Assembly: GCA_964016885.1 (NCBI GenBank)
Contig: OZ024750.1
Coordinates: 27,218,001 to 27,282,000, forward strand
Length of the DNA stretch: 64,000 nucleotides
From: Eledone cirrhosa
Taxonomy: Eukaryota
Direction: 5' to 3'
Position numbers and translations under genes: made by a program. How positions within the stretch are numbered: the stretch's first letter is position 1; each line of letters opens with the position of its first letter. Under the pieces are notes generated by a model, which saw nothing but the letters and a program-made list of their open reading frames with translations, was not told where the DNA came from and did no database searches. Below, one piece after another: positions 4,300-60,833 of the stretch.

Positions 4300-7200
4300 G
4301 AAACTTATGCTTATTCATTTTTGGGGCCTTTTCTGCCCGTGTGTTTGTTTGTTTATGTGTGTTCGTATACAGCGTGGTGATAATGCCACACAAGGGCCAA
4401 GTGGGATGGCGGATCCACAGATGGCTATGTAAACATACATTCGCCAATCCTCGATAAGAGTGTTTAAATATCGAACATAAACAGTTCGAATAACGGTGAA
4501 ATGGAGACTAGAACGTCATGTGACAGACTCTCACCCAACAGGTGCCCCCTGGCTCAGCAGCAGGAACCTGACTGTCAACCAAATACTGCTGATGTTGGAG
4601 GAAGAAGAAGAAGGAAAGGGGCCAGAACCAACTGGACGAAAGAATTGAATAGAACTGTTATGCAATGCTACCTGAAAAGTAACCCCAAGGAGAGGGGCTA
4701 CAGGAGACGGATGCATAACATCTGGAACGAGATTGGTTTATTTAAATTAGATGAACAAAAATTGGCCGGGCAGGCTCGGGTAATAAGAACTAATGGGTGG
4801 ATAAGCGAGCTGGAACTGGAGGAACTGAGCAGAGAGAATGGCTTGGAGATGGCGGGTGTAGTATGCCAGACAAGCGAGCCGGTGGGAAATGAAGGTGAGG
4901 AGGTCCTGAGAACGGAGGAACCACCCGAAGCAGACAATGATCTGAATACTGAGATAAATAATACCTGGAACAGAGATACGGCCACTGAGGAGATGAATGC
5001 TGACGGGCTAGGACAAGATTCGGTTGACATCCTAAATCTAGTGGTAGATGAATTGAACAATGATAGTGGGAGACCTATGAACCTAAGATTTGTAGACAGG
5101 AAAAAGTTAAAAGAAACAACAGCTAAGGTAAACAAAGTCATCCCATACCTTGAGGCGAGGAGTCTTCACCAGTGCAACAATATCCTCAAAGCAACAGCAA
5201 ATACGGTGAGGAAACTACTTGGTATAAAAGCGAGAGGAAACAACAGACAAGAAAGAGCAGAGCCGTGGTGGAAGAAGCGACTGAGTGGGCAAATCGGGGA
5301 AATGAGAAATGACATAGGAAAGCTTGAGTCACTACTGAATGGGACACTAAAAAACATAGGCACTAAAAATAGACTGGAAATAAAATACAAAACTAGGAGT
5401 AAAAAGCTAAATATTATCATAGAGGAATTGAAGCAACGCATTGTAGCAAAGAGTGCCAAAATCAGGCGATACGAGAACAGAGTCAGTCAGTATAAACAGA
5501 ACCGCATGTTCGACAACAACCAGAAGATGCTGTTTGGACAGCTTGAGGGGAAAGAAAGAGGCAACGACTTGATCCCTGGGGCGGAACAAGCTAAAACATT
5601 CTGGAGAGGAATATGGGAGCAGGATGTTAGACACAATGCCCAGGCAGGGTGGATTGAGACAGTACAGAGGGAGATCGGTGAGAAGGCACAACAACAGACT
5701 GATTTGAGTATCACAGTTGAAACTCTTAAGGGGCAAGCCAAAAAACTAACCAACTGGAAATCACCAGGCCCAGATGGTGTGCAGGGGTATTGGATTAAAC
5801 ATTTAACATCCCTCCACCCGAAGCTGACGGCCATGTTCAATGACTGCTTGGTGTCGGGTGAGGTGCCAGAGTGGTTGACAAAAGGTACCACAGTTCTGAT
5901 AATGAAAGACCGAATCAAGGGTAATGATGTTACCAACTATAGACCTATCACATGTCTGCCCGTAATGTGGAAACTGTTGACGAGCATTGTGTCTGAGGAA
6001 ATCTACCATCACCTCCACACAAACAACTTGTTACCGGACGAACAGAAAGGATGCCGAAAGAAGTCACGTGGTACAAAGGACCAGTTGCTTATTGATAAGA
6101 TGGTAATGGGGAATTGCAGGAGGAGACACACTGATCTTGCCATGGGATGGATAGACTACAGAAAGGCATTTGACATGGTGCCTCATTCCTGGATCACCAA
6201 AAGCCTGGAGGTCTTCAGGGTGGCAGATAACATCAGACAGTTGCTGGGCAGGAGTATGGGGTCCTGGGAGACAGAGTTGACATCAACTGGAGTATCCTTG
6301 GGAAGCGTGAAGATCAAGAGAGGTATCTTCCAGGGAGATAGCCTGTCCCCTCTGTTGTTTGTCCTTGCCCTGATGCCCTTGACCATTATGCTGCGAAAAG
6401 TGAGAGCAGGATACAAGTTGGGAAGGGGAGAGCTTACCATCAATCACCTCCTCTTCATGGACGATCTTAAGCTCTTCGGGAAAAGTGAGAAGGAGTTGGA
6501 TGTGCTTGTTGACACTGTCCGTATTTTCAGCAGTGATATATGTATGCAGTTTGGTATTGGTAAATGTGGAGTCATTGTGATGAAGAGGGGTAGGTTGAGC
6601 AGAAGTAACGGGATCCAGATACCAACAGGTGAGATGATAAAGGAAATTGACTCTGAGGAAGGATACAAGTATTTGGGCGTTCTGGAGGCTGATGGCATAA
6701 AGAACAAAAAAATGAAGGAATTGTTAAGAACTGAATACATCCGGAGAGTAAGGAGCGTATTGAAGTCACATCTGAACAGCAGAAATGCCATAAGCGCAGT
6801 AAATTCCCGAGCTGTGTCTATTATTAGGTACAGTGCTGGAATTCTGAGATGGAATGTTGCTGAACAAAAAGAAATGGATAGGAAGACTAGGAAGCTATTG
6901 ACTATCTACAACATGTTCCACAAGAGGAGTGATGTCGATAGACTCTACCTAAGGAGATCTGAGGGTGGAAGAGGTCTTATCAGCATAGAGGACTGTGTTC
7001 AGATGGAGAAAAACAACCTATACAAATACGTGACCTATAGTAAGGAGCCAATGCTCAGAACTGTACTGAAGGAGGGGACAGTAGGCCAGGGGATATCCAA
7101 GGAGGAAATAACATCAAGGAGGAAGAGCAGCCTTAAGGGAAAATCCCTTCATAGTACCTTCTTTGAGAAAACTGAATTTAGAGATCCACAGACATGGAAC

Positions 7201-8020
7201 TGGTTGAGAAGAGGAGACCTCAAAAAGGCTACAGAAGGAATGCTAATGGCTGCGCAGGAGCAGGCCCTCAAAACGAAGTGGTTGAAGCACCATATCTACA
7301 AGGAGGAGGCTAGCCCACTGTGCAGGATCTGTGGAGAGAGAGAGGAGACTGTGGCTCACATTGTGTCCGAGTGTAAACACCTAGCCCAGACCCACTATAA
7401 GGGCTGGAGACACGATGTGATGGGCAGGGTGATCCACTGGCACCTGTGCAAAGTAAACAATCTACCACATTCTGAGAAATGGTATGAGCATAGGCCAGAG
7501 GCGGTGATGGAGAACAGTCAGGTGAAGGTGCTGTGGGATTTTAGGATACAGACGGACAAAAAACTGGAACACAATAGACCTGACCTGGTGGTTGTGGACA
7601 AAGAAAAAAGATCGTGCCTGATTGTGGATGTGGCCTGGCCGTTCGACACGAGAGTGCAAGAGAAGGAGAGGGAGAAAATTAACCGATACCAGGACCTAAA
7701 GTGGGAGGTGAAAAGGATTTGGAACTGCCATGAAGTCAAAGTGATTTAGCGATTGTCATAGGCGCACTGGGGACTATCTCCAAAGGTTTCCAGGGATGGT
7801 TAAAGAAAATCGGCCCCTTCACGCTCTTTGGAACGTTTCAAAAGGCATGCTTGCTTGGAACAGCAAGAACCCTCCGATACGTCCTGAATATCTGAGGCTG
7901 CAGGTAGTGGCTTGATATTCAATCCAACGGACTTTCCAGTTAACCAACATCAATGACTGAGATTCAAGGAATAACAATAACAATAATAATAATAATAATG
8001 ATAATAATGATAATAATAAT
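4300..8020 (+). mobile_element. Near full-length R4/Dong-like (RLE-type) non-LTR retrotransposon
   Basis: Single long RT+RLE ORF, 3'UTR 7896-7970, (AAC/AAT)n tail; 5' boundary approximate. Confidence 0.88.
4501..7749 (+). CDS. Non-LTR retrotransposon polyprotein (RT + CCHC knuckle + restriction-like endonuclease), prematurely stopped
   Basis: Motifs KSPGPDG, YRPITCL, WIDYRKAFD, RGIFQGDSLSPLLF, HLLFMDD, YKYLG, GGRGL, RHD, RPD. TAG plus a 2-nt gain at ~7746 relative to the 2641 copy; native stop at 7893-7895. Confidence 0.9.
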   Translation: METRTSCDRLSPNRCPLAQQQEPDCQPNTADVGGRRRRKGARTNWTKELNRTVMQCYLKSNPKERGYRRRMHNIWNEIGLFKLDEQKLAGQARVIRTNGWISELELEELSRENGLEMAGVVCQTSEPVGNEGEEVLRTEEPPEADNDLNTEINNTWNRDTATEEMNADGLGQDSVDILNLVVDELNNDSGRPMNLRFVDRKKLKETTAKVNKVIPYLEARSLHQCNNILKATANTVRKLLGIKARGNNRQERAEPWWKKRLSGQIGEMRNDIGKLESLLNGTLKNIGTKNRLEIKYKTRSKKLNIIIEELKQRIVAKSAKIRRYENRVSQYKQNRMFDNNQKMLFGQLEGKERGNDLIPGAEQAKTFWRGIWEQDVRHNAQAGWIETVQREIGEKAQQQTDLSITVETLKGQAKKLTNWKSPGPDGVQGYWIKHLTSLHPKLTAMFNDCLVSGEVPEWLTKGTTVLIMKDRIKGNDVTNYRPITCLPVMWKLLTSIVSEEIYHHLHTNNLLPDEQKGCRKKSRGTKDQLLIDKMVMGNCRRRHTDLAMGWIDYRKAFDMVPHSWITKSLEVFRVADNIRQLLGRSMGSWETELTSTGVSLGSVKIKRGIFQGDSLSPLLFVLALMPLTIMLRKVRAGYKLGRGELTINHLLFMDDLKLFGKSEKELDVLVDTVRIFSSDICMQFGIGKCGVIVMKRGRLSRSNGIQIPTGEMIKEIDSEEGYKYLGVLEADGIKNKKMKELLRTEYIRRVRSVLKSHLNSRNAISAVNSRAVSIIRYSAGILRWNVAEQKEMDRKTRKLLTIYNMFHKRSDVDRLYLRRSEGGRGLISIEDCVQMEKNNLYKYVTYSKEPMLRTVLKEGTVGQGISKEEITSRRKSSLKGKSLHSTFFEKTEFRDPQTWNWLRRGDLKKATEGMLMAAQEQALKTKWLKHHIYKEEASPLCRICGEREETVAHIVSECKHLAQTHYKGWRHDVMGRVIHWHLCKVNNLPHSEKWYEHRPEAVMENSQVKVLWDFRIQTDKKLEHNRPDLVVVDKEKRSCLIVDVAWPFDTRVQEKEREKINRYQDLKWEVKRIWNCHEVKVI

Positions 8021-8202
8021 TTATTTGTTGTTAAATGTAAGAATATCAGTTATAAATAACGCAAAAACTGATAAGTAGTGTTAAATGTTTTATATTTTTG
8101 AAAGTAATTTTGCTACTTATATTGATTGTTACGTCCATATGTTTTCGGATCTGTATCATGTAGTGATATCTCCAACAGTATTACCTATACTGATTATTTC
8201 CG

Positions 8203-8337
8203 CATGTCGACATGGAACATTTGGTATCGGTTGTAAAATGTCATGTCTTTGTTCGAACAACTCTTTCTGTGACAAGCAAGAGGGAACATGTTCAGATGGG
8301 TGTAGTGCAGGTTATCTTGGTGACGACTGCCAACTAA
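8203..8337 (+). CDS. Gene 1 EGF-like exon (CRHGTFGIGCKMSCLCSNNSFCDKQEGTCSDGCSAGYLGDDCQL), non-canonical acceptor
   Basis: 135 nt, 8 Cys, phase 1, GT donor at 8338; the acceptor reads tttccg instead of tttcag. Confidence 0.65.
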   Translation, partial: HVDMEHLVSVVKCHVFVRTTLSVTSKREHVQMGVVQVILVTTAN

Positions 8338-17979: not shown

Positions 17980-18114
17980 AATGCCGTATAGGAAAGTTTG
18001 GTGTTAATTGTAAAGAGACATGCCATTGTATCAACAACACAAACTGTGACCAGCGAAATGGAAGTTGTGCAGATGGATGTTCTGCAGGTTATGTTGGTGA
18101 CAATTGCCAAGAAG
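17980..18114 (+). CDS. Gene 1 EGF exon (CRIGKFGVNCKETCHCINNTNCDQRNGSCADGCSAGYVGDNCQE)
   Basis: tttcag acceptor, GT donor, 135 nt, phase 1, 8 Cys. Confidence 0.9.
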
Positions 18115-18311: not shown

Positions 18312-18446
18312 ATTGCCCAGTAGGATGGTTTGGTGTTAATTGTAACGAGACATGCCATTGCAACGACAACATTAACTGTGACATCTTTAATGGAAGATGT
18401 TCAGATGGATGTACTGCAGGTTATATTGGTGACAATTGCCAAGAAG
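18312..18446 (+). CDS. Gene 1 EGF exon (CPVGWFGVNCNETCHCNDNINCDIFNGRCSDGCTAGYIGDNCQE)
   Basis: tttcag/GT, 135 nt, phase 1, 8 Cys. Confidence 0.9.
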
Positions 18447-18573: not shown

Positions 18574-18644
<71 letters not shown>

Positions 18645-19111
18645 TATGTATATGTATGCTTGAGATTGTGTGTGTGTGCGTGTGCTTCCGTGTGTGTGTG
18701 GAAATATGATGTTTAATATAGAAATCGCTTCTACAGGACTAGAATAGTTTCATCCAAAGAAATCAACAGGAAACGGCTTTCCTGATTATTACTTTTGAAT
18801 GAAATAGTTCTAACAGTTCTAAATGTAAATATATATATAATTATAACTGAATATAAAAGACAAACGAACACAGACATTATACATATATGTGTTCAAATCG
18901 CAATGGAGTTTCTAACACAATATATACCTTTGATATATTTGGCTCCGTTAATTTGTTTAGCTAATTCAAATGTCGAGTAAACCTGGCTGTTATTTTTAGT
19001 GGTGTTATTTTGTGATACACGCAAAGTTCGGATACCATGTGCGTTATTATATATACGCACACTATTCATTTTTTTAATATGCTTAGAAGTGACCAGAATA
19101 CTAATATTTCT

Positions 19112-19191
19112 TCACCCGTTGATGAGCAAGAATTGGTATTCCTCTTCACAATTAATATCGCGAAACATCATTATCAAAGCTGTCCGGGTGA
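19112..19191 (+). ncRNA. Array hammerhead, unit 1 (core C3>U)
   Basis: tcacccg-TTGATGA-gc..gc-GAAA-ca..t-GTC|cgggtga; perfect 7-bp stem I but a mutated core. Confidence 0.65.
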
Positions 19192-19355
19192 TTGGAAGTT
19201 ACCACAATTCCGGTTCGTATTTATTTTCTTGATTTATTCTTAAATTGAGTCTGGCAAACTCTATTGTCTACAGTTAGTATTCTTTTCACCTTAGTGAATC
19301 TGGTCCCTTGCGATTTGAACACATATATGTATATGTCTGTGTTCGTTTTTGTTTT

Positions 19356-20405
19356 GTAGAATGGTGTTCCACGAGAACTTGAAATCTATTTTTTTCTTTT
19401 TATAATTATTTAGCGCTTCAGCTAAAGATGTTGTGTTAGCTAGTTTAGTATTGTCGAAACTACTAGAGTGTGCGTTAAATCTTTTCTTAAATGTGTTTGA
19501 TGTAGATCCTATGTATGTTTTGTTGACACAGTGCATTTATATATTACATTATTAATCAAACAGCTTCCATTTAAGGGGCAAATGCTTCTATTTCTGCAAT
19601 TACAGTCATACGTAACATGGTTGTTGGGGGTGCTTATACTTTTCTCATTAATCCTTGAACTATTCCTATTGTAATTATTGATAGCAGGAGAATGAAGGTT
19701 GCTTTGTGGGTGGTTTGGTGCTAGGGTTGTATTGTGATTTTGTGTTCTGTTACATTTGTGTGGGATATTTGGGTGGTTGTGTTTTCTAGGTTGAAGGATT
19801 GTATTATTTGCCTTTTTAAAAGGTGCAGTCCTATTTAAATTATGTTGTGGTGGTGTAGTCATATTATTTTTAAGTTTATAAATGTTGTAGTTGATTATAT
19901 TTTGCTGGAGATTGTTTGATGTAGAGTATGAGAATTTAACAGTATATTTGTTAAATATTTGGTGGTATCTGTGGTTTGGTGGAAAATGTTTATGTAGAAT
20001 TTCAAAGAATTTTTGGGGGATTTGTCCAATAGTTTGCAGGTTGAAGGGTGCGTTGTACCATATTATGTTTCTTTTACGGTTTTTAGTTAAGTTCTTATAC
20101 CACTTATATTATTGTGTTGTGTTCTCGAATAATTCCTATGTTTAGTATCCTTATTTGTGGAATTTGCTGAATTATCGTGGTTACATTTGGTGTTATTATT
20201 GGATAGAATATGAGATTTTGAGTGCTTGGAATTCATATGTGGGTTGATAACGTTGGTCATAGATTGTGTAGTAATAGTTGTTGTGGTTTTTCGGTTGTTT
20301 GGTGTAATGGGAATAACCACTTTAGGTATTTGTTTCAATGGTATTTTTTGGAGTTTGTAGTTTTTTGGTAGGTTTTATATTTTGGTCCATAGTAGTGTTA
20401 GGGAT
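19356..20405 (-). mobile_element. Penelope-like linker/GIY-YIG fragment at array junctions (copies 21923-22972, 24487-25536, 27057-28106, 29621-30670, 32180-33229)
   Basis: CNCRNRSICPLNGSCLINNVIYKC plus frameshifted KTYIGSTSNTFKKRFNAHSSSF; upstream IIWYNAPF..HFPPNHRYHQIFNKYTVKFSYS. Confidence 0.85.
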
Positions 20406-20676
20406 ATAAGAGAAAATTTATATATACAAATATGTACACAACAAAGCCTGCAGCTCCATTATCCGTCGCTGTCACTTCTCCCTCTCTCATTGTCCCTCTC
20501 TCTATGTCCCTCTTTCAATCTACTCTCTTACAACCACTATCTCTTTCTCTCTATCTTTCACTCTCTCTCGTGTCTGTGGGTGTGTGCTGGGTGCAAGTGT
20601 GTGCTTGCAGGTGTGTATGTGCATGTGTGTGTGTGTAAATATGATGTTTAATATAGAAATCTTATATATATTTCAG

Positions 20677-20811
20677 AATGCCGAATAGGAAGGTTTGGTG
20701 TTAATTGTAAAGGGACATGCCTTTGTATCAACAACAAAAACTGTGACCATCGAAATGGAAGTTGTTCAGATGGATGTATTGCAGGTCATACTGGTGACAA
20801 TTGCCAAGAAG
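20677..20811 (+). CDS. Gene 1 EGF exon type A (CRIGRFGVNCKGTCLCINNKNCDHRNGSCSDGCIAGHTGDNCQE)
   Basis: tttcag/GT, 135 nt, phase 1. Confidence 0.9.
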
Positions 20812-20993
20812 GTATATCATAAACTTGTTACATAATTACTATAATTACTATATACACACACACACACACACAGATATATGTATGTGAATGTGCGTTTGTG
20901 TGAGGGGTGTATGTGGGGGTGGCAGGTGTGTGCGTGCATGTGTTTGTGTGTGTAAATATGATGTTTAATATAGAAATCTTATATATATTTCAG

Positions 20994-21128
20994 AATGCCA
21001 AGCAGGAGAGTTTGGTGTTAATTGTAGAGAGACATGCCATTGTATCAACAAGAAAAACTGTGACACTCGAAATGGAAGTTGTTCAGATGGATGTACTGCA
21101 GGTCATATTGGTGACAATTGCCAAGAAA
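20994..21128 (+). CDS. Gene 1 EGF exon type B (CQAGEFGVNCRETCHCINKKNCDTRNGSCSDGCTAGHIGDNCQE)
   Basis: tttcag/GT, 135 nt, phase 1. Confidence 0.88.
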
Positions 21129-21155
21129 GTATATGATATACGTGTTAAGTATTTA

Positions 21156-21193
<38 letters not shown>

Positions 21194-21355
21194 ATGTATA
21201 TGTATGCTTGAGATTGTGTGTGTGTGCATGTGCTTCCGTGTGTTTGTGGAAATATGATGTTTAATATAGAAATCGCTTCTACGGGACTAGAATAGTTTCA
21301 TTCAAAGAAATCAACAGGAAACGACTTTTGAATGAAATAGTTCCAATAGTTTTAA

Positions 21356-21410
<55 letters not shown>

Positions 21411-21678
21411 TAACTGAATATAAAAGAAAAACGAACACAGACATTATACATATATGTGTACAGATCGCAATGGAGTTTCTAACTATATATATACCTTTGA
21501 TATACTCGGCTCCGTTATTTTGTTTAGCTAATTCAAATGTCGAATAAACCCTGCTGCTATTTTTAGTGGTGTAAGTTTGCGATACACGCAAAGTTCGGAT
21601 ACCATGGGCGTTTATTATATATACGCACACTATTCCGTTTTTAAAAAAAGTAGAAGTGACTCGGATACTAATAATTCT

Positions 21679-21758
21679 TCACCCGCTGATGAGCAAGAAT
21701 TGGTATTGCTCTTCACAATTAATATTGCGAAACATCATTATCAAAGCTGTCCGCGTGA
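21679..21758 (+). ncRNA. Type-I hammerhead ribozyme, array unit 2
   Basis: tcacccg-CTGATGA-GCAA..TTGC-GAAA-CA..T-GTC|cgcgtga; all core nucleotides present; predicted cut after 21751. Confidence 0.8.
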
Positions 21759-23243
21759 TTGGAAGTTACCACAATTCCGGTTCGTATTTACCTTCTTGAT
21801 TTATTCTTAAATTGAGTCTGGCATACTCTATTGTCTATAGTTAGTATTCTTTTCACCTTAGAGAATCTGGTCCCTTGCGATTTGAACACATATATGTATA
21901 TGTCTGTGTTCGTTTTTGTTTTGTAGAATGGTGTTCCACGAGAACTTGAAATCTATTTTTTTCTTTTTATAATTATTTAGCGCTTCAGCTAAAGATGTTG
22001 TGTTAGCTAGATTAGTATTGTCGAAACTACTAGAGTGTGCGTTAAATCTTTTCTTAAATGTGTTTGATGTAGATCCTATGTATGTTTTGTTGACACAGTG
22101 CATTTATATATTACATTATTAATCAAACAGCTTCCATTTAAGGGGCAAATGCTTCTATTTCTGCAATTACAGTCATACGTAACATGGTTGTTGGGGGTGC
22201 TTATACTTTTCTCATTAATCCTTGAACTATTCCTATTGTAATTATTGATAGCAGGAGAATGAAGGTTGCTTTGTGGGTGGTTTGGTGCTAGGGTTGTATT
22301 GTGATTTTGTGTTCTGTTACATTTGTGTGGGATATTTGGGTGGTTGTGTTTTCTAGGTTGAAGGATTGTATTATTTGCCTTTTTAAAAGGTGCAGTCCTA
22401 TTTAAATTATGTTGTGGTGGTGTAGTCATATTATTTTTAAGTTTATAAATGTTGTAGTTGATTATATTTTGCTGGAGATTGTTTGATGTAGAGTATGAGA
22501 ATTTAACAGTATATTTGTTAAATATTTGGTGGTATCTGTGGTTTGGTGGAAAATGTTTATGTAGAATTTCAAAGAATTTTTGGGGGATTTGTCCAATAGT
22601 TTGCAGGTTGAAGGGTGCGTTGTACCATATTATGTTTCTTTTGCGGTTTTTAGTTAAGTTCTTATACCACTTATATTATTGTGTTGTGTTCTCGAATAAT
22701 TCCTATGTTTAGTATCCTTATTTGTGGAATTTGCTGAATTATCGTGGTTACATTTGGTGTTATTATTGGATAGAATATGAGATTTTGAGTGCTTGGAATT
22801 CATATGTGGGTTGATAACGTTGGTCATAGATTGTGTAGTAATAGTTGTTGTGGTTTTTCGGTTGTTTGGTGTAATGGGAATAACCACTTTAGGTATTTGT
22901 TTCAATGGTATTTTTTGGAGTTTGTAGTTTTTTGGTAGGTTTTATATTTTGGTCCATAGTAGTGTTAGGGATATAAGAGAAAATTTATATATACAAATAT
23001 ATACACAACAAAGCCTGCAGCTCCATTATCCGTCGCTGTCACCTCTCCCTCTCTCATTGTCCCTCTCTCTATGTCCCTCTTTCAATCTACTCTCTTACAA
23101 CCACTATCTCTTTCTCTCTATCTTTCACTCTCTCTCGTGTCTGTGGGTGTGTGCTGGGTGCAAGTGTGTGCTTGCAGGTGTGTATGTGCATGTGTGTGTG
23201 TGTAAATATGATGTTTAATATAGAAATTTTATATATATTTCAG

Positions 23244-23378
23244 AATGCCGAATAGGAAGGTTTGGTGTTAATTGTAAAGGGACATGCCTTTGTATCAACA
23301 ACAAAAACTGTGACCATCGAAATGGAAGTTGTTCAGATGGATGTATTGCAGGTCATACTGGTGACAATTGCCAAGAAG
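23244..23378 (+). CDS. Gene 1 EGF exon type A
   Basis: As 20677. Confidence 0.9.
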
Positions 23379-23560
23379 GTATATCATAAACTTGTTACAT
23401 AATTACTATAATTACTATATACACACACACACACACACAGATATATGTATGTGCATGTGCGTTTGTGTGAGGGGTGTATGTGGGGGTGGCAGGTGTGTGC
23501 GTGCATGTGTTTGTGTGTGTAAATATGATGTTTAATATAGAAATCTTATATATATTTCAG

Positions 23561-23695
23561 AATGCCAAGCAGGAGAGTTTGGTGTTAATTGTAGAGAGAC
23601 ATGCCATTGTATCAACAAGAAAAACTGTGACACTCGAAATGGAAGTTGTTCAGATGGATGTACTGCAGGTCATATTGGTGACAATTGCCAAGAAA
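23561..23695 (+). CDS. Gene 1 EGF exon type B
   Basis: As 20994. Confidence 0.88.
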
Positions 23696-23722
23696 GTATA
23701 TGATATACGTGTTAAGTATTTA

Positions 23723-23758
<36 letters not shown>

Positions 23759-23920
23759 ATGTATATGTATGCTTGAGATTGTGTGTGTGTGCATGTGCTT
23801 CCGTGTGTTTGTGGAAATATGATGTTTAATATAGAAATCGCTTCTACGGGACTAGAATAGTTTCATTCAAAGAAATCAACAGGAAACGACTTTTGAATGA
23901 AATAGTTCCAATAGTTTTAA

Positions 23921-23975
<55 letters not shown>

Positions 23976-24243
23976 TAACTGAATATAAAAGAAAAACGAA
24001 CACAGACATTATACATATATGTGTACAGATCGCAATGGAGTTTCTAACTATATATATACCTTTGATATACTCGGCTCCGTTATTTTGTTTAGCTAATTCA
24101 AATGTCGAATAAACCCTGCTGCTATTTTTAGTGGTGTAAGTTTGCGATACACGCAAAGTTCGGATACCATGGGCGTTTATTATATATACGCACACTATTC
24201 CGTTTTTAAAAAAAGTAGAAGTGACTCGGATACTAATAATTCT

Positions 24244-24323
24244 TCACCCGCTGATGAGCAAGAATTGGTATTGCTCTTCACAATTAATATTGCGAAACAT
24301 CATTATCAAAGCTGTCCGCGTGA
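24244..24323 (+). ncRNA. Type-I hammerhead ribozyme, array unit 3
   Basis: Same motif; predicted cut after 24316. Confidence 0.8.
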
Positions 24324-25807
24324 TTGGAAGTTACCACAATTCCGGTTCGTATTTACCTTCTTGATTTATTCTTAAATTGAGTCTGGCTACTCTATTGTCT
24401 ATAGTTAGTATTCTTTTCACCTTAGCGAATCTGGTCCCTTGCGATTTGAACACATATATGTATATGTCTGTGTTCGTTTTTGTTTTGTAGAATGGTGTTC
24501 CACGAGAACTTGAAATCTATTTTTTTCTTTTTATAATTATTTAGCGCTTCAGCTAAAGATGTTGTGTTAGCTAGATTAGTATTGTCGAAACTACTAGAGT
24601 GTGCGTTAAATCTTTTCTTAAATGTGTTTGATGTAGATCCTATGTATGTTTTGTTGACACAGTGCATTTATATATTACATTATTAATCAAACAGCTTCCA
24701 TTTAAGGGGCAAATGCTTCTATTTCTGCAATTACAGTCATACGTAACATGGTTGTTGGGGGTGCTTATACTTTTCTCATTAATCCTTGAACTATTCCTAT
24801 TGTAATTATTGATAGCAGGAGAATGAAGGTTGCTTTGTGGGTGGTTTGGTGCTAGGGTTGTATTGTGATTTTGTGTTCTGTTACATTTGTGTGGGATATT
24901 TGGGTGGTTGTGTTTTCTAGGTTGAAGGATTGTATTATTTGCCTTTTTAAAAGGTGCAGTCCTATTTAAATTATGTTGTGGTGGTGTAGTCATATTATTT
25001 TTAAGTTTATAAATGTTGTAGTTGATTATATTTTGCTGGAGATTGTTTGATGTAGAGTATGAGAATTTAACAGTATATTTGTTAAATATTTGGTGGTATC
25101 TGTGGTTTGGTGGAAAATGTTTATGTAGAATTTCAAAGAATTTTTGGGGGATTTGTCCAATAGTTTGCAGGTTGAAGGGTGCGTTGTACCATATTATGTT
25201 TCTTTTGCGGTTTTTAGTTAAGTTCTTATACCACTTATATTATTGTGTTGTGTTCTCGAATAATTCCTATGTTTAGTATCCTTATTTGTGGAATTTGCTG
25301 AATTATCGTGGTTACATTTGGTGTTATTATTGGATAGAATATGAGATTTTGAGTGCTTGGAATTCATATGTGGGTTGATAACGTTGGTCATAGATTGTGT
25401 AGTAATAGTTGTTGTGGTTTTTCGGTTGTTTGGTGTAATGGGAATAACCACTTTAGGTATTTGTTTCAATGGTATTTTTTGGAGTTTGTAGTTTTTTGGT
25501 AGGTTTTATATTTTGGTCGATTGTAGTGTTAGGGATATAAGAGAAAATTTATATATACAAATATATACACAACAAAGCCTGCAGCTCCATTATCCGTCGC
25601 TGTCACCTCTCCCTCTCTCATTGTCCCTCTCTCTATGTCCCTCTTTCAATCTACTCTCTTACAACCACTATCTCTTTCTCTCTATCTTTCACTCTCTCTC
25701 GTGTCTGTGGGTGTGTGCTGGGTGCAAGTGTGTGCTTGCAGGTGTGTATGTGCATGTGTGTGTGTGTAAATATGATGTTTAATATAGAAATCTTATATAT
25801 ATTTCAG

Positions 25808-25942
25808 AATGCCGAATAGGAAGGTTTGGTGTTAATTGTAAAGGGACATGCCTTTGTATCAACAACAAAAACTGTGACCATCGAAATGGAAGTTGTTCAG
25901 ATGGATGTATTGCAGGTCATACTGGTGACAATTGCCAAGAAG
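25808..25942 (+). CDS. Gene 1 EGF exon type A
   Basis: As 20677. Confidence 0.9.
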
Positions 25943-26124
25943 GTATATCATAAACTTGTTACATAATTACTATAATTACTATATACACACACACACACAC
26001 ACAGATATATGTATGTGCATGTGCGTTTGTGTGAGGGGTGTATGTGGGGGTGGCAGGTGTGTGCGTGCATGTGTTTGTGTGTGTAAATATGATGTTTAAT
26101 ATAGAAATCTTATATATATTTCAG

Positions 26125-26259
26125 AATGCCAAGCAGGAGAGTTTGGTGTTAATTGTAGAGAGACATGCCATTGTATCAACAAGAAAAACTGTGACACTCG
26201 AAATGGAAGTTGTTCAGATGGATGTACTGCAGGTCATATTGGTGACAATTGCCAAGAAA
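26125..26259 (+). CDS. Gene 1 EGF exon type B
   Basis: As 20994. Confidence 0.88.
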
Positions 26260-26286
26260 GTATATGATATACGTGTTAAGTATTTA

Positions 26287-26330
<44 letters not shown>

Positions 26331-26492
26331 ATGTATATGTATGCTTGAGATTGTGTGTGTGTGCATGTGCTTCCGTGTGTTTGTGGAAATATGATGTTTA
26401 ATATAGAAATCGCTTCTACGGGACTAGAATAGTTTCATTCAAAGAAATCAACGGGAAACGACTTTTGAAAGAAATAGTTCCAATAGTTTTAA

Positions 26493-26545
<53 letters not shown>

Positions 26546-26813
26546 TAACTGAATATAAAAGAAAAACGAACACAGACATTATACATATATGTGTACAGAT
26601 CGCAATGGAGTTTCTAACTATATATATACCTTTGATATACTCGGCTCCGTTATTTTGTTTAGCTAATTCAAATGTCGAATAAACCCTGCTGCTATTTTTA
26701 GTGGTGTAAGTTTGCGATACACGCAAAGTTCGGATACCATGGGCGTTTATTATATATACGCACACTATTCCGTTTTTAAAAAAAGTAGAAGTGACTCGGA
26801 TACTAATAATTCT

Positions 26814-26893
26814 TCACCCGCTGATGAGCAAGAATTGGTATTGCTCTTCACAATTAATATTGCGAAACATCATTATCAAAGCTGTCCGCGTGA
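26814..26893 (+). ncRNA. Type-I hammerhead ribozyme, array unit 4
   Basis: Same motif; predicted cut after 26886. Confidence 0.8.
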
Positions 26894-28377
26894 TTGGAAG
26901 TTACCACAATTCCGGTTCGTATTTACCTTCTTGATTTATTCTTAAATTGAGTCTGGCTACTCTATTGTCTATAGTTAGTATTCTTTTCACCTTAGCGAAT
27001 CTGGTCCCTTGCGATTTGAACACATATATGTATATGTCTGTGTTCGTTTTTGTTTTGTAGAATGGTGTTCCACGAGAACTTGAAATCTATTTTTTTCTTT
27101 TTATAATTATTTAGCGCTTCAGCTAAAGATGTTGTGTTAGCTAGATTAGTATTGTCGAAACTACTAGAGTGTGCGTTAAATCTTTTCTTAAATGTGTTTG
27201 ATGTAGATCCTATGTATGTTTTGTTGACACAGTGCATTTATATATTACATTATTAATCAAACAGCTTCCATTTAAGGGGCAAATGCTTCTATTTCTGCAA
27301 TTACAGTCATACGTAACATGGTTGTTGGGGGTGCTTATACTTTTCTCATTAATCCTTGAACTATTCCTATTGTAATTATTGATAGCAGGAGAATGAAGGT
27401 TGCTTTGTGGGTGGTTTGGTGCTAGGGTTGTATTGTGATTTTGTGTTCTGTTACATTTGTGTGGGATATTTGGGTGGTTGTGTTTTCTAGGTTGAAGGAT
27501 TGTATTATTTGCCTTTTTAAAAGGTGCAGTCCTATTTAAATTATGTTGTGGTGGTGTAGTCATATTATTTTTAAGTTTATAAATGTTGTAGTTGATTATA
27601 TTTTGCTGGAGATTGTTTGATGTAGAGTATGAGAATTTAACAGTATATTTGTTAAATATTTGGTGGTATCTGTGGTTTGGTGGAAAATGTTTATGTAGAA
27701 TTTCAAAGAATTTTTGGGGGATTTGTCCAATAGTTTGCAGGTTGAAGGGTGCGTTGTACCATATTATGTTTCTTTTGCGGTTTTTAGTTAAGTTCTTATA
27801 CCACTTATATTATTGTGTTGTGTTCTCGAATAATTCCTATGTTTAGTATCCTTATTTGTGGAATTTGCTGAATTATCGTGGTTACATTTGGTGTTATTAT
27901 TGGATAGAATATGAGATTTTGAGTGCTTGGAATTCATATGTGGGTTGATAACGTTGGTCATAGATTGTGTAGTAATAGTTGTTGTGGTTTTTCGGTTGTT
28001 TGGTGTAATGGGAATAACCACTTTAGGTATTTGTTTCAATGGTATTTTTTGGAGTTTGTAGTTTTTTGGTAGGTTTTATATTTTGGTCGATTGTAGTGTT
28101 AGGGATATAAGAGAAAATTTATATATACAAATATATACACAACAAAGCCTGCAGCTCCATTATCCGTCGCTGTCACCTCTCCCTCTCTCATTGTCCCTCT
28201 CTCTATGTCCCTCTTTCAATCTACTCTCTTACAACCACTATCTCTTTCTCTCTATCTTTCACTCTCTCTCGTGTCTGTGGGTGTGTGCTGGGTGCAAGTG
28301 TGTGCTTGCAGGTGTGTATGTGCATGTGTGTGTGTGTAAATATGATGTTTAATATAGAAATCTTATATATATTTCAG

Positions 28378-28512
28378 AATGCCGAATAGGAAGGTTTGGT
28401 GTTAATTGTAAAGGGACATGCCTTTGTATCAACAACAAAAACTGTGACCATCGAAATGGAAGTTGTTCAGATGGATGTATTGCAGGTCATACTGGTGACA
28501 ATTGCCAAGAAG
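28378..28512 (+). CDS. Gene 1 EGF exon type A
   Basis: As 20677. Confidence 0.9.
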
Positions 28513-28694
28513 GTATATCATAAACTTGTTACATAATTACTATAATTACTATATACACACACACACACACACAGATATATGTATGTGCATGTGCGTTTGT
28601 GTGAGGGGTGTATGTGGGGGTGGCAGGTGTGTGCGTGCATGTGTTTGTGTGTGTAAATATGATGTTTAATATAGAAATCTTATATATATTTCAG

Positions 28695-28829
28695 AATGCC
28701 AAGCAGGAGAGTTTGGTGTTAATTGTAGAGAGACATGCCATTGTATCAACAAGAAAAACTGTGACACTCGAAATGGAAGTTGTTCAGATGGATGTACTGC
28801 AGGTCATATTGGTGACAATTGCCAAGAAA
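28695..28829 (+). CDS. Gene 1 EGF exon type B
   Basis: As 20994. Confidence 0.88.
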
Positions 28830-28856
28830 GTATATGATATACGTGTTAAGTATTTA

Positions 28857-28898
<42 letters not shown>

Positions 28899-29060
28899 AT
28901 GTATATGTATGCTTGAGATTGTGTGTGTGTGCATGTGCTTCCGTGTGTTTGTGGAAATATGATGTTTAATATAGAAATCGCTTCTACGGGACTAGAATAG
29001 TTTCATTCAAAGAAATCAACGGGAAACGACTTTTGAAAGAAATAGTTCCAATAGTTTTAA

Positions 29061-29109
<49 letters not shown>

Positions 29110-29377
29110 TAACTGAATATAAAAGAAAAACGAACACAGACATTATACATATATGTGTACAGATCGCAATGGAGTTTCTAACTATATATATACCTTTGAT
29201 ATACTCGGCTCCGTTATTTTGTTTAGCTAATTCAAATGTCGAATAAACCCTGCTGCTATTTTTAGTGGTGTAAGTTTGCGATACACGCAAAGTTCGGATA
29301 CCATGGGCGTTTATTATATATACGCACACTATTCCGTTTTTAAAAAAAGTAGAAGTGACTCGGATACTAATAATTCT

Positions 29378-29457
29378 TCACCCGCTGATGAGCAAGAATT
29401 GGTATTGCTCTTCACAATTAATATTGCGAAACATCATTATCAAAGCTGTCCGCGTGA
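29378..29457 (+). ncRNA. Type-I hammerhead ribozyme, array unit 5
   Basis: Same motif; predicted cut after 29450. Confidence 0.8.
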
Positions 29458-30941
29458 TTGGAAGTTACCACAATTCCGGTTCGTATTTACCTTCTTGATT
29501 TATTCTTAAATTGAGTCTGGCTACTCTATTGTCTATAGTTAGTATTCTTTTCACCTTAGCGAATCTGGTCCCTTGCGATTTGAACACATATATGTATATG
29601 TCTGTGTTCGTTTTTGTTTTGTAGAATGGTGTTCCACGAGAACTTGAAATCTATTTTTTTCTTTTTATAATTATTTAGCGCTTCAGCTAAAGATGTTGTG
29701 TTAGCTAGATTAGTATTGTCGAAACTACTAGAGTGTGCGTTAAATCTTTTCTTAAATGTGTTTGATGTAGATCCTATGTATGTTTTGTTGACACAGTGCA
29801 TTTATATATTACATTATTAATCAAACAGCTTCCATTTAAGGGGCAAATGCTTCTATTTCTGCAATTACAGTCATACGTAACATGGTTGTTGGGGGTGCTT
29901 ATACTTTTCTCATTAATCCTTGAACTATTCCTATTGTAATTATTGATAGCAGGAGAATGAAGGTTGCTTTGTGGGTGGTTTGGTGCTAGGGTTGTATTGT
30001 GATTTTGTGTTCTGTTACATTTGTGTGGGATATTTGGGTGGTTGTGTTTTCTAGGTTGAAGGATTGTATTATTTGCCTTTTTAAAAGGTGCAGTCCTATT
30101 TAAATTATGTTGTGGTGGTGTAGTCATATTATTTTTAAGTTTATAAATGTTGTAGTTGATTATATTTTGCTGGAGATTGTTTGATGTAGAGTATGAGAAT
30201 TTAACAGTATATTTGTTAAATATTTGGTGGTATCTGTGGTTTGGTGGAAAATGTTTATGTAGAATTTCAAAGAATTTTTGGGGGATTTGTCCAATAGTTT
30301 GCAGGTTGAAGGGTGCGTTGTACCATATTATGTTTCTTTTGCGGTTTTTAGTTAAGTTCTTATACCACTTATATTATTGTGTTGTGTTCTCGAATAATTC
30401 CTATGTTTAGTATCCTTATTTGTGGAATTTGCTGAATTATCGTGGTTACATTTGGTGTTATTATTGGATAGAATATGAGATTTTGAGTGCTTGGAATTCA
30501 TATGTGGGTTGATAACGTTGGTCATAGATTGTGTAGTAATAGTTGTTGTGGTTTTTCGGTTGTTTGGTGTAATGGGAATAACCACTTTAGGTATTTGTTT
30601 CAATGGTATTTTTTGGAGTTTGTAGTTTTTTGGTAGGTTTTATATTTTGGTCGATTGTAGTGTTAGGGATATAAGAGAAAATTTATATATACAAATATAT
30701 ACACAACAAAGCCTGCAGCTCCATTATCCGTCGCTGTCACCTCTCCCTCTCTCATTGTCCCTCTCTCTATGTCCCTCTTTCAATCTACTCTCTTACAACC
30801 ACTATCTCTTTCTCTCTATCTTTCACTCTCTCTCGTGTCTGTGGGTGTGTGCTGGGTGCAAGTGTGTGCTTGCAGGTGTGTATGTGCATGTGTGTGTGTG
30901 TAAATATGATGTTTAATATAGAAATCTTATATATATTTCAG

Positions 30942-31076
30942 AATGCCGAATAGGAAGGTTTGGTGTTAATTGTAAAGGGACATGCCTTTGTATCAACAAC
31001 AAAAACTGTGACCATCGAAATGGAAGTTGTTCAGATGGATGTATTGCAGGTCATACTGGTGACAATTGCCAAGAAG
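30942..31076 (+). CDS. Gene 1 EGF exon type A
   Basis: As 20677. Confidence 0.9.
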
Positions 31077-31252
31077 GTATATCATAAACTTGTTACATAA
31101 TTACTATAATTACTATATACACACACACACACAGATATATGTATGTGCATGTGCGTTTGTGTGAGGGGTGTATGTGGGGGTGGCAGGTGTGTGCGTGCAT
31201 GTGTTTGTGTGTGTAAATATGATGTTTAATATAGAAATCATATATATTTCAG

Positions 31253-31387
31253 AATGCCAAGCAGGAGAGTTTGGTGTTAATTGTAGAGAGACATGCCATT
31301 GTATCAACAAGAAAAACTGTGACACTCGAAATGGAAGTTGTTCAGATGGATGTACTGCAGGTCATATTGGTGACAATTGCCAAGAAA
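31253..31387 (+). CDS. Gene 1 EGF exon type B
   Basis: As 20994; visible in ORF 31168..31395. Confidence 0.88.
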
Positions 31388-31414
31388 GTATATGATATAT
31401 GTGTTAAGTATTTA

Positions 31415-31458
<44 letters not shown>

Positions 31459-31620
31459 ATGTATATGTATGCTTGAGATTGTGTGTGTGTGCATGTGCTT
31501 CCGTGTGTTTGTGGAAATATGATGTTTAATATAGAAATCGCTTCTACGGGACTAGAATAGTTTCATTCAAAGAAATCAACGGGAAACGACTTTTGAAAGA
31601 AATAGTTCCAATAGTTTTAA

Positions 31621-31667
<47 letters not shown>

Positions 31668-31935
31668 TAACTGAATATAAAAGAAAAACGAACACAGACA
31701 TTATACATATATGTGTACAGATCGCAATGGAGTTTCTAACTATATATATACCTTTGATATACTCGGCTCCGTTATTTTGTTTAGCTAATTCAAATGTCGA
31801 ATAAACCCTGCTGCTATTTTTAGTGGTGTAAGTTTGCGATACACGCAAAGTTCGGATACCATGGGCGTTTATTATATATACGCACACTATTCCGTTTTTA
31901 AAAAAAGTAGAAGTGACTCGGATACTAATAATTCT

Positions 31936-32015
31936 TCACCCGCTGATGAGCAAGAATTGGTATTGCTCTTCACAATTAATATTGCGAAACATCATTATCA
32001 AAGCTGTCCGCGTGA
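31936..32015 (+). ncRNA. Type-I hammerhead ribozyme, array unit 6
   Basis: Same motif; predicted cut after 32008. Confidence 0.8.
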
Positions 32016-33500
32016 TTGGAAGTTACCACAATTCCGGTTCGTATTTACCTTCTTGATTTATTCTTAAATTGAGTCTGGCATACTCTATTGTCTATAGTTA
32101 GTATTCTTTTCACCTTAGCGAATCTGGTCCCTTGCGATTTGAACACATATATGTATATGTCTGTGTTCGTTTTTGTTTTGTAGAATGGTGTTCCACGAGA
32201 ACTTGAAATCTATTTTTTTCTTTTTATAATTATTTAGCGCTTCAGCTAAAGATGTTGTGTTAGCTAGATTAGTATTGTCGAAACTACTAGAGTGTGCGTT
32301 AAATCTTTTCTTAAATGTGTTTGATGTAGATCCTATGTATGTTTTGTTGACACAGTGCATTTATATATTACATTATTAATCAAACAGCTTCCATTTAAGG
32401 GGCAAATGCTTCTATTTCTGCAATTACAGTCATACGTAACATGGTTGTTGGGGGTGCTTATACTTTTCTCATTAATCCTTGAACTATTCCTATTGTAATT
32501 ATTGATAGCAGGAGAATGAAGGTTGCTTTGTGGGTGGTTTGGTGCTAGGGTTGTATTGTGATTTTGTGTTCTGTTACATTTGTGTGGGATATTTGGGTGG
32601 TTGTGTTTTCTAGGTTGAAGGATTGTATTATTTGCCTTTTTAAAAGGTGCAGTCCTATTTAAATTATGTTGTGGTGGTGTAGTCATATTATTTTTAAGTT
32701 TATAAATGTTGTAGTTGATTATATTTTGCTGGAGATTGTTTGATGTAGAGTATGAGAATTTAACAGTATATTTGTTAAATATTTGGTGGTATCTGTGGTT
32801 TGGTGGAAAATGTTTATGTAGAATTTCAAAGAATTTTTGGGGGATTTGTCCAATAGTTTGCAGGTTGAAGGGTGCGTTGTACCATATTATGTTTCTTTTG
32901 CGGTTTTTAGTTAAGTTCTTATACCACTTATATTATTGTGTTGTGTTCTCGAATAATTCCTATGTTTAGTATCCTTATTTGTGGAATTTGCTGAATTATC
33001 GTGGTTACATTTGGTGTTATTATTGGATAGAATATGAGATTTTGAGTGCTTGGAATTCATATGTGGGTTGATAACGTTGGTCATAGATTGTGTAGTAATA
33101 GTTGTTGTGGTTTTTCGGTTGTTTGGTGTAATGGGAATAACCACTTTAGGTATTTGTTTCAATGGTATTTTTTGGAGTTTGTAGTTTTTTGGTAGGTTTT
33201 ATATTTTGGTCCATAGTAGTGTTAGGGATATAAGAGAAAATTTATATATACAAATATATACACAACAAAGCCTGCAGCTCCATTATCCGTCGCTGTCACC
33301 TCTCCCTCTCTCATTGTCCCTCTCTCTATGTCCCTCTTTCAATCTACTCTCTTACAACCACTATCTCTTTCTCTCTATCTTTCACTCTCTCTCGTGTCTG
33401 TGGGTGTGTGCTGGGTGCAAGTGTGTGCTTGCAGGTGTGTATGTGCATGTGTGTGTGTGTAAATATGATGTTTAATATAGAAATCTTATATATATTTCAG

Positions 33501-33635
33501 AATGCCGAATAGGAAGGTTTGGTGTTAATTGTAAAGGGACATGCCTTTGTATCAACAACAAAAACTGTGACCATCGAAATGGAAGTTGTTCAGATGGATG
33601 TATTGCAGGTCATACTGGTGACAATTGCCAAGAAA
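33501..33635 (+). CDS. Gene 1 EGF exon, A body with B-type donor (hybrid)
   Basis: A coding sequence ending GAA A|gtatatgatatacgt, as in the B exons. Confidence 0.88.
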
Positions 33636-33662
33636 GTATATGATATACGTGTTAAGTATTTA

Positions 33663-33702
<40 letters not shown>

Positions 33703-34163
33703 ATGTATATGTATGCTTGAGATTGTGTGTGTGTGTGCATGTGCTTCCGTGTGTTTGTGGAAATATGATGTTTAATATAGAAATCGCTTCTACGGGACTA
33801 GAATAGTTTCATTCAAAGAAATCAACAGGAAACGACTTTTGAATGAAATAGTTCCAATAGTTCTAAATGTATATATATATATATATATATAATTATAACT
33901 GAATATAAAAGAAAAACGAACACAGACATTATACATATATGTGTACAGATCGCAATGGAGTTTCTAACTATATATATACCTTTGATATACTCGGCTCCGT
34001 TATTTTGTTTAGCTAATTCAAATGTCGAATAAACCCTGCTGCTATTTTTAGTGTTGTAAGTTTGCGATACACGCAAAGTTCGGATACCATGGGCGTTTAT
34101 TATATATACGCACACTATTCCGTTTTTAAAAAAAGTAGAAGTGACTCGGATACTAATAATTCT

Positions 34164-34243
34164 TCACCCGCTGATGAGCAAGAATTGGTATTGCTCTTCA
34201 CAATTAATATTGCGAAACATCATTATCAAAGCTGTCCGCGTGA
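34164..34243 (+). ncRNA. Type-I hammerhead ribozyme, array unit 7
   Basis: Same motif; predicted cut after 34236; the carrier element is complete here with inverted ends at ~33892-33955 and ~34362-34427. Confidence 0.8.
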
Positions 34244-34539
34244 TTGGAAGTTACCACAATTCCGGTTCGTATTTACCTTCTTGATTTATTCTTAAATTGA
34301 GTCTGGCATACTCTATTGTCTATAGTTAGTATTCTTTTCACCTTAGCGAATCTGGTCCAGTGCTATTTGAACACATATATGTATATGTCTCTGTTCGTTT
34401 TTTTTTTCTTTTATATTCAGTTATAATGTACGGCTCGGAAAAATCTCTTTCCTAGCGTTATTTTATTGTAAGAGACAATTTTGGGTTTCTAACTCAATAT
34501 ATACATTTGATATATATATGTATGTATATATATAAATAC

Positions 34540-42886: not shown

Positions 42887-42983
42887 AAATACAGGCACAA
42901 CCACCAGATGCCACTTATGTCCTGTTAGTTACGGTGTTACCTTTTCTGGTAATTGTAGCTGCGTCTACATTATTCATTTACAG
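42887..42983 (+). CDS. Gene 1 transmembrane exon (IQAQPPDATYVLLVTVLPFLVIVAASTLFIY)
   Basis: ttttacctttgaacag acceptor and cag|gtatgt donor; phase-1 entry matches the EGF exons; ~21 hydrophobic residues; phase-2 exit. Confidence 0.8.
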
Positions 42984-44120: not shown

Positions 44121-44318
44121 TAACGAAGGAGGTGTGGTACGGAACCAGATGGAACATAACGCACCAGAGTACTCAGAACTTAGGGTAGTAGAGTGGGTAA
44201 TAGGAAAATGTTTAACCCCGACGGCAGAGCTCAAACCGTTTCGACGGCTATTTCTGGACTCCAAAAATAGCCGTCGAAACGGCTTGAGCTCTGCCGTTGG
44301 GGTTAAACATTTTCCTAT
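44121..44318 (-). mobile_element. Fold-back half-hammerhead element
   Basis: Hairpin at ~44199-44318 plus a tail, within (TA)n. Confidence 0.7.
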
Positions 44319-44988: not shown

Positions 44989-44991
<3 letters not shown>

Positions 44992-45198
44992 CGAAGGAAA
45001 TGTGGTAAGGAACCAGGTGGACCATAACGCACCAAAGTACTCAATACTTGAGGTAGTAGAGTGGGTAATAGGAACCAGTAAGACCCCGACAGCTGAGCTC
45101 AAGCCGTTTCGACGGCTAATTCTGGACCGGCTAATTGAGTCCAGAATTAGCCGTCGAAACGGCTTGAGCTCAGCTGTCGGGGTCTTACTGGTTCCTAT
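44989..45198 (-). mobile_element. Fold-back half-hammerhead element
   Basis: Hairpin at ~45068-45198 plus a tail, within (TA)n. Confidence 0.7.
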
Positions 45199-46242: not shown

Positions 46243-46462
46243 GATGAGGTTAAACAAAGATTACAGTCATCACGATGATAATAATGAAGACGACGGCATT
46301 GTTAATGATGGCAATAATGTTGATGCTGATGACGATAATGATGATGAGGATAAAGATGAATCCGATAATGATGAATCCGATAATGATGATAATGATGATA
46401 ATGATGATGCCGATAATAATGATAATGTTGATGGCGAAAAAGTTAAACAATTCCAAGGTTAA
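46243..46462 (+). CDS. Probable gene 1 cytoplasmic tail exon, Asp/Asn-rich
   Basis: Branch-like tactaat, pyrimidine tract and tttag acceptor; phase-2 entry (AG+G=Arg) continues in frame as RMRLNKDYSHHDDNNEDD...KQFQG*. Confidence 0.6.
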
Positions 46463-60639: not shown

Positions 60640-60643
<4 letters not shown>

Positions 60644-60831
60644 AACCAGTAAGACCCCGACAGCTGAGCTCAAGCCGTTTCGACGGCTAATTCGGGTCCA
60701 GAATTAGCCGTCGAAACGGCTTGAGCTCAGCTGTCGGGGTCTTACTGGTTCCTATTACCCACTCTACTACCTCAAGTATTGAGTACTTTGGTGCGTTATG
60801 GTCCACCTGGTTCCTTACCACATTTCCTTCG

Positions 60832-60833
<2 letters not shown>
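60640..60833 (+). mobile_element. Fold-back half-hammerhead element
   Basis: Reverse complement of 44989-45198 with a different loop. Confidence 0.7.

Follow-up and report, generated by a model that had tools for sequence, protein, structure and literature searches.

The window analyzed in this study, a stretch of 64,000 nt of the Eledone cirrhosa contig OZ024750.1, contains a gene for a predicted EGF-repeat receptor in which seven tandem units with EGF exons (exons A and B in the repeated units) each carry a hammerhead ribozyme on the sense strand of an intron. The ribozymes are borne by a short repeat, a retrozyme, which we regard with a probability of about three in four, judging from sequence and modeled folds, as a decaying passenger that was copied together with the exons and most likely has no function. 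The array itself most likely grew by unequal DNA crossover (or conversion) between two retrozyme-bearing introns. Coordinates are positions in the window unless marked as window-relative.

A motif scan of the plus strand detected six identical hammerheads of the form CUGAUGA...GAAA...GUC and a seventh, in unit 1, with the change C3U. The CTGATGA cores begin at 21686, 24251, 26821, 29385, 31943, and 34171, and the TTGATGA core of unit 1 begins at 19119, while the C17 residues of the seven hammerheads lie at 19184, 21751, 24316, 26886, 29450, 32008, and 34236. The first-pass annotation of this DNA had placed seven hammerheads on the strand of the EGF exons, 0.5–0.7 kb past the last exon of each unit; the scan and the C17 positions agreed with its cut sites, and the measured distance was 0.55–0.67 kb after the preceding exon. 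Its statement that a ribozyme follows every EGF exon pair held for the units before the last, but the last ribozyme follows a single hybrid A/B exon. The hammerheads are as follows:

19112–19191, plus strand: hammerhead 1, with C3U, a stem II mismatch, and a stem III mismatch; predicted inactive
21679–21758, plus strand: hammerhead 2, with full core, 4-bp stem II, C·C mismatch in stem I, and U·C mismatch in stem III; C17 at 21751
24244–24323, plus strand: hammerhead 3, identical to hammerhead 2
26814–26893, plus strand: hammerhead 4, identical to hammerhead 2
29378–29457, plus strand: hammerhead 5, identical to hammerhead 2
31936–32015, plus strand: hammerhead 6, identical to hammerhead 2
34164–34243, plus strand: hammerhead 7, identical to hammerhead 2

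The core (CUGANGA / GAAA / UH with G10.1-C11.1) is complete in units 2–7. Three helices with an open stem I are present in the retrozyme family, whereas the array copies are mismatched in stems I and III. The annotation had given stem III as 3 bp and stem I as 6/7 bp, which are damaged versions of the 5-bp and 7-bp stems of the family. Likewise, the C3>U change reported for unit 1 is present, but it is accompanied by the stem II mismatch and is not the sole lesion.

The proposed check by an Rfam search did not recover the hammerheads: nothing in the window reached the gathering score, and a search of 18600–22500 at E ≤ 10 likewise returned no hammerhead family. The long loop II is the likely cause. 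The core pattern of the family gave 204 matches in the 3.0-Gb genome versus 0 for a reversed control, and stem I showed compensatory changes at two of its seven pairs (U-A/A-U and A-U/G-C) in the 31-row family alignment, in which 96.8% of the cells were paired. The rows were mostly chosen by the core pattern, so that the invariant stems II and III carry no weight. Since the core matches were absent from the control and stem I varies in a compensatory manner, the motif is not due to chance, and by these sequence patterns the hammerheads at the locus are a real type I hammerhead family.

The carrier is a low-GC repeat of ~526 nt with one type I hammerhead per monomer and no open reading frame (ORF) shared among 46 loci. 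A genome search with 33891–34430 returned 2002 candidates on many contigs, 40 of which were scored, and the locations of the core-pattern matches were taken among the matches listed (100 of 204). Among 45 non-redundant dispersed loci, a 5′ inverted piece was found in 32, a partial head-to-tail copy in 23, a tail repeat of ~33 nt in 18, and a (TA)n run at the 3′ end in 41. Two hammerheads stand head to tail, 517 bp apart, at locus L094; no long multimer of the retrozyme was found in the loci seen, where full dimers were rare. These inverted pieces, partial tandems, tails, and (TA)n runs are Penelope-like insertion marks of the kind described by Craig et al. (2021; PMC8557442). The family fits a non-autonomous, Penelope-type retrozyme without long terminal repeats (non-LTR), and the ORF-less dispersed copies with such marks bear out the earlier suggestion of a link to Penelope-like elements and retrozymes. 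The copies in the array are the following:

18839–19355, plus strand: retrozyme copy 1, with a 5′ inverted piece of ~67 nt followed by the monomer, ended early by a Penelope-like fragment
21406–21922, plus strand: retrozyme copy 2, a chimera of copy 7 type in its 5′ part and copy 1 type in its 3′ part
Starts at 23971, 26541, 29105, and 31663, plus strand: further chimeric retrozyme copies like copy 2
33891–34515, plus strand: retrozyme copy 7, complete, with inverted 5′ piece, ~526-nt monomer, and ~33-nt tail, within a (TA)n run

No reverse transcriptase or GIY-YIG ORF adjoined the repeat at a fixed position in this sample of 46 loci, none of which had Hydra-like protein matches, and other Penelope ORF pieces occurred in four of them at differing positions. 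Within this sample, the repeat accordingly does not behave as the pseudo-LTR of an autonomous Penelope-like element. Two same-strand copies on C2, separated by 2.7 kb, represent a local duplication and enclose no ORF. The window also contains palindromic fragments of a second repeat family (2350–2447, 44122–44316, 44990–45196, and 60641–60833), each with an apparent hammerhead 3′ half whose loop III is self-complementary; they lack the CUGANGA half, which was probably lost at a 5′ inversion.

Within 264 kb around the array, 13 retrozyme copies were found, all of them in the sense orientation and in one clade with a support of 100/99 (bootstrap not fully settled). A G>U change in stem III was present in all 13 and in none of 39 dispersed copies, and a 14th copy, located in an inverted paralogue, is also sense and carries this diagnostic change. 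Since the local copies form one clade with a common stem III change, a single retrozyme insertion at the locus is probable. The genomic contigs carried the family base at 21735 in 97% and at 21754 in 98% of the depth. In 200 kb of sister arrays, 101 EGF exon matches were accompanied by one retrozyme, and the intron segment just upstream of the insertion was found at 34 sites (matches of 38 nt or more), 33 of which lacked the element. The exon arrays are thus older than the ribozyme and expand in its absence. In the copy at 93869 (window-relative; L042/L043), stem III is again paired at its fourth position owing to a second change, but the core carries G8C.

The growth of the array was read from the differences between its units. 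Units 1 and 2 differ at 37 of 516 positions in the retrozyme (7%), compared with 2 of 1053 and 4 of 995 outside it (0.2–0.4%). In a site-by-site mosaic, for which units 2, 3, and 6 were aligned while units 4 and 5 match unit 3, unit 2 agreed with unit 7 through element position 433 at 38 of the 39 informative sites; past it, all five sites and the Penelope junction were of the unit 1 type. On this evidence, the retrozymes of units 2–6 are chimeric, combining the unit 7 copy with the unit 1 copy. The switch falls at element positions 434–512 and the cut site is position 346, leaving a gap of 88–166 nt on the 3′ side of the cut, in which five unit-7-type sites are still present, with unit-7-derived alleles at 349, 387, and 419. 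In window coordinates, the founding event is placed as follows:

21839–21917, plus strand: inferred interval of the crossover behind the founding duplication, with 21839–21873 as the likeliest part

Since the copies are chimeric and the junction lies inside the retrozyme, unequal crossover within the retrozyme is the most likely source of the array. Because the intron and exons upstream are homologous as well, the retrozyme would have lengthened the crossover target rather than created it. Repeat-mediated unequal crossover is well known, and our literature search, which lacked most subscription papers, returned no work joining a retrozyme with exon duplication. Three points weigh against this account. 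Four of the five unit-1-type sites past the switch reflect changes private to unit 7, so that the 3′ limit of the interval rests on site 513 and the Penelope junction; gene conversion can yield the same mosaic as crossover; and no junction can be compared for the later expansion, which took place among near-identical units.

The first-pass annotation had also proposed that tandem ribozymes release unit-length, exon-bearing RNAs or circles, which are re-inserted by a Penelope reverse transcriptase and so build the array. Retrozymes do produce monomers and circles, according to the available part of PMC7229834, and Penelope-like elements are able to retain introns and to mobilize host genes in trans, according to that of PMC8557442. 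However, an RNA cut at C17 and re-inserted would place the switch at position 346, and the observed junction 88–166 nt downstream, with five unit-7-type sites past the cut, is not of this kind. Moreover, hammerhead 1, which the founding event would need, has C3U, copies with 99–100% identity occurred only in the array among the scored candidates, with no near-identical unit elsewhere, and the sister arrays expanded without the element. We consider this RNA route very improbable, and for the founding duplication it is not supported.

Under the preferred account of DNA-level copying, one non-autonomous Penelope-type retrozyme would have been inserted in an intronic (TA)n run of the EGF-repeat receptor gene, and two diverged copies would later have flanked an exon pair. 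A crossover in the 3′ part of these retrozymes would have duplicated the segment consisting of the Penelope fragment, exon A, exon B, and the retrozyme, and further crossovers among near-identical units would have led to six units and one hybrid exon, the last unit having apparently lost one exon by an A/B crossover. The ribozymes are predicted to have decayed into slow or dead passengers along the way.

The state of the ribozymes supports such decay. All local copies have the U·C mismatch at the fourth stem III pair, and units 2–7 have an added C·C mismatch at the third stem I pair; the other seven local copies (L104 included) have core lesions in five cases and a broken stem II in two. The free-folded array RNA prefers a rod that pairs, and thereby buries, the core. 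The hammerhead fold of the array copies carries a penalty of 11.5–11.7 kcal/mol relative to the ensemble at 37°C, while the family median is 4.7–5.1 kcal/mol (37 core-intact matches, a few of whose loci overlap); the penalty is thus ~6–7 kcal/mol above the family median, with a similar gap at 15 and 25°C. The array hammerheads are predicted from these models to be weakened, slow, or dead. For comparison, an intact coral retrozyme cleaves at ~0.8 per minute in the accessible text of PMC7229834, and fast intronic ribozymes abort splicing while slow synthetic ones have no effect (Fong 2009, as summarized in the available portion of PMC10919898). Cleavage in the array is predicted to be too slow to beat splicing. 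Since the gene is open and apparently selected while carrying six sense ribozymes, slow or dead ribozymes would fit best.

Derived alleles at ribozyme positions numbered 15 at 42 sites versus 87 at 401 sites elsewhere (0.36 vs. 0.22 per site; p =.09, towards an excess). The dispersed copies show a similar 1.5-fold excess of changes at ribozyme sites, and consequently neither conservation nor selected inactivation is shown for the array. The passive passenger, which had been listed as one option in the annotation, is supported by the single clade, the likely DNA-level copying, the poor predicted fold, and the unconserved ribozyme positions.

Several observations count against complete inactivity. 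In the same fold model, the penalty is at least as large for 4–6 of the 37 family copies with an intact core, and the model omits tertiary contacts and co-transcriptional folding. In addition, units 2–7 are the sole local lineage with a full core and a 4-bp stem II, present in six of the seven window copies, and it is this lineage that expanded. It is conceivable, though unlikely, that units 2–7 cleave slowly but measurably, in which case each added unit would remove pre-mRNA before splicing, as a CPEB3-like intronic brake. Such a brake would have arisen by accident, with the output of full-length receptor falling as the array grows, and may now be used. The sense orientation, the open frame, and the ~1.5 kb that separate each cut site from the next exon would suit it, and a slow intronic ribozyme lowers Cpeb3 mRNA according to the available part of PMC10919898. 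On the other hand, two stem mismatches lie beside the core, the competing rod buries it, no conservation is seen in the clade, the other local copies are damaged, and the slow synthetic ribozymes summarized in that source left splicing unaffected. A combined role, in which the retrozyme seeds the array as a crossover substrate and then taxes it, every EGF pair adding a slow cleavage site so that output falls with ectodomain length, is similarly doubtful. Should units 2–7 cut, the yield of mRNA would depend on the number of exon copies, a link that would be new, and the one intact-core lineage amplified six-fold would provide a built-in brake on repeat expansion.

Truncated or secreted receptors had been proposed as another outcome, with cleavage yielding isoforms of variable length without the transmembrane exon. 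Read-through of the exon B donor hits a stop within two codons, and one AATAAA is located at 21543, upstream of the cut; by estimate, however, 620 bases of AT-rich sequence should contain about one AATAAA by chance. Cleavage leaves a cyclic phosphate and no poly(A) on the 5′ product, so the ribozyme does not supply the necessary poly(A) step, and such an isoform would arise from intronic polyadenylation instead. A secreted receptor made by ribozyme cleavage is therefore scarcely credible.

The unit count itself could be inflated by the assembly, with fewer than six units in the animal, which we consider improbable. Outside microsatellites, units 3 and 4 do not differ at all (100% identity, 2318 bp), and neither a contig nor a long read was found that crosses the whole array. 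However, the units differ by nested patterns of single-nucleotide polymorphisms and by their (AC)n and (TA)n lengths, and units are duplicated in a like manner in paralogous genes. A contig identical to 21487–21612 had a depth of 48.6 versus 6–22 for seven other listed pieces, a weak indication in the same direction.

Metazoan non-LTR retrozymes (Cervera and de la Pena 2020, PMC7229834; Li et al. 2026, bioRxiv 10.64898/2026.07.22.740005), in the portions available, resemble the present family in their non-coding low-GC monomer with one type I hammerhead, their dispersed monomers and partial tandems, and their Penelope-like insertion marks. The monomer is ~526 nt here compared with 150–450 bp in the available text of PMC7229834. 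The Eledone family further differs in its long loop II missed by Rfam models, in the rarity of full dimers, and in repeats that are spaced by exons and copied at the DNA level. About 43% of Xenopus retrozyme copies are intronic in the accessible part of the bioRxiv report, whose supplements list the species sampled and may include a cephalopod family. The Penelope-like pseudo-LTRs in the available text of Craig et al. (2021) are alike in partial tandems, an inverted 5′-truncated piece, a 30–40 bp tail, (TA)n targets, and a hammerhead, and unlike in that no ORF stands at a constant position here. The amniote ribozymes CPEB3 (HDV-like; PMC10919898) and RECK and C10orf118 (hammerheads; PMC10761166) share a self-cleaving motif on the sense strand of an intron. 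As far as the accessible texts go, they are single and strongly conserved with measured cleavage, whereas the Eledone copies are young, repeat-derived, and unconserved, and are gathering lesions; the conservation above flanks of the domesticated CPEB3/RECK type is absent from the derived-allele rates given above.

Under the preferred account, the locus offers a family of non-LTR retrozymes from a cephalopod and clearly illustrates how a repeat with a ribozyme can contain the breakpoint at which exons of a rapidly evolving receptor cluster were duplicated. Its 14 related intronic copies, with different lesions and 0–7 per gene, form a natural series for how much intronic self-cleavage a gene tolerates.

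Each unit also contains a minus-strand Penelope fragment of 1053 bp, which belongs to a family distinct from the retrozyme:

19356–20408, minus strand: broken Hydra-clade-like Penelope ORF fragment with thumb, linker with CxCX5C, and most of GIY-YIG
21923–22975, 24487–25539, 27057–28109, 29621–30673, and 32180–33232, minus strand: repeats of this fragment

Its relatives L058 and L060 have a C-terminal GIY-YIG, a CxCX5C linker, and CxxC and CxH motifs, as compared by eye with the available text of PMC8557442; Pfam gave no match for the fragment. The minus-strand ORF was rejected as the parent of the retrozyme, since the 3′ end of its intact relatives is different and they contain no retrozyme copy. 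None of six Hydra-like loci had a retrozyme within 1.5 kb, and a relaxed scan of the same six loci found no hammerhead.

The predicted frame of the host gene is open over 711 aa, or 764 aa with exon Y, and its product would comprise a signal peptide, EGF repeats, a membrane helix, and a short acidic tail, the signal-peptide exon being located ~7.25 kb left of the window. Thirteen symmetrical 135-nt EGF exons with AG/GT ends (14 EGF-like exons with exon Y) encode repeats of 44 residues with eight cysteines. The exons are listed below:

8179–8337, plus strand: EGF-like exon Y; its usual acceptor is now CG, an upstream in-frame AG is available, and the frame is open with or without it
17980–18114 and 18312–18446, plus strand: first EGF exon pair, 135 nt each, phase 1-1
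20677–20811 and 20994–21128, plus strand: EGF exons A and B, repeated at 23244/23561, 25808/26125, 28378/28695, and 30942/31253
33501–33635, plus strand: single hybrid exon, with the 5′ part of A and the 3′ end and intron of B
42887–42983, plus strand: predicted transmembrane exon of the host gene
46243–46462, plus strand: predicted last coding exon, found by eye, with Asp/Asn-rich cytoplasmic tail and stop

The nearest named relatives in HMMER and profile searches were the Octopus draper/MEGF-like proteins XP_029644740.2 and CAI9733299.1. Exon A has 51–53% identity to Octopus proteins, and another array exon up to 66–75%. Pfam returned EGF matches below cutoff only, for three of four exons, and a word-indexed protein search with exon A gave no match. 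From its sequence, the gene is predicted to encode an octopus-type MEGF/draper-like EGF-repeat receptor. It shares the 44-residue, eight-cysteine repeats with the Octopus receptors, and differs in that the 264 kb, which holds four paralogues in a tandem cluster, yielded no exons for F5/8 or phosphatase domains. The wider EGF-receptor family occupies very large clusters with many independent tandem exon arrays at C10:25.85–27.33 Mb and C2:310–315 Mb.

Compared with the paralogues at −25319, 74164, and 116958 (window-relative), the membrane exon differs at 13–21 of 31 residues with 0–1 synonymous codon changes, while the next 200 intron bases have 6–11 differing sites (three ungapped comparisons), a likely sign of strong positive selection on the membrane helix. 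The tail exon consists of an Asp/Asn low-complexity tract of 9-, 15-, and 24-nt repeats with a single Tyr. In paralogue L039 (−1783 to −1690, window-relative), the first EGF exon lacks its 5′ part and the second its usual acceptor; since both are phase 1-1, the frame survives. An intron of the window gene also contains a 1093-codon open frame of a non-LTR retrotransposon (4468–7749, plus strand) with reverse transcriptase and restriction-like endonuclease motifs recognized by eye; the segment 2626–3376 is repeated at 7225–7977.

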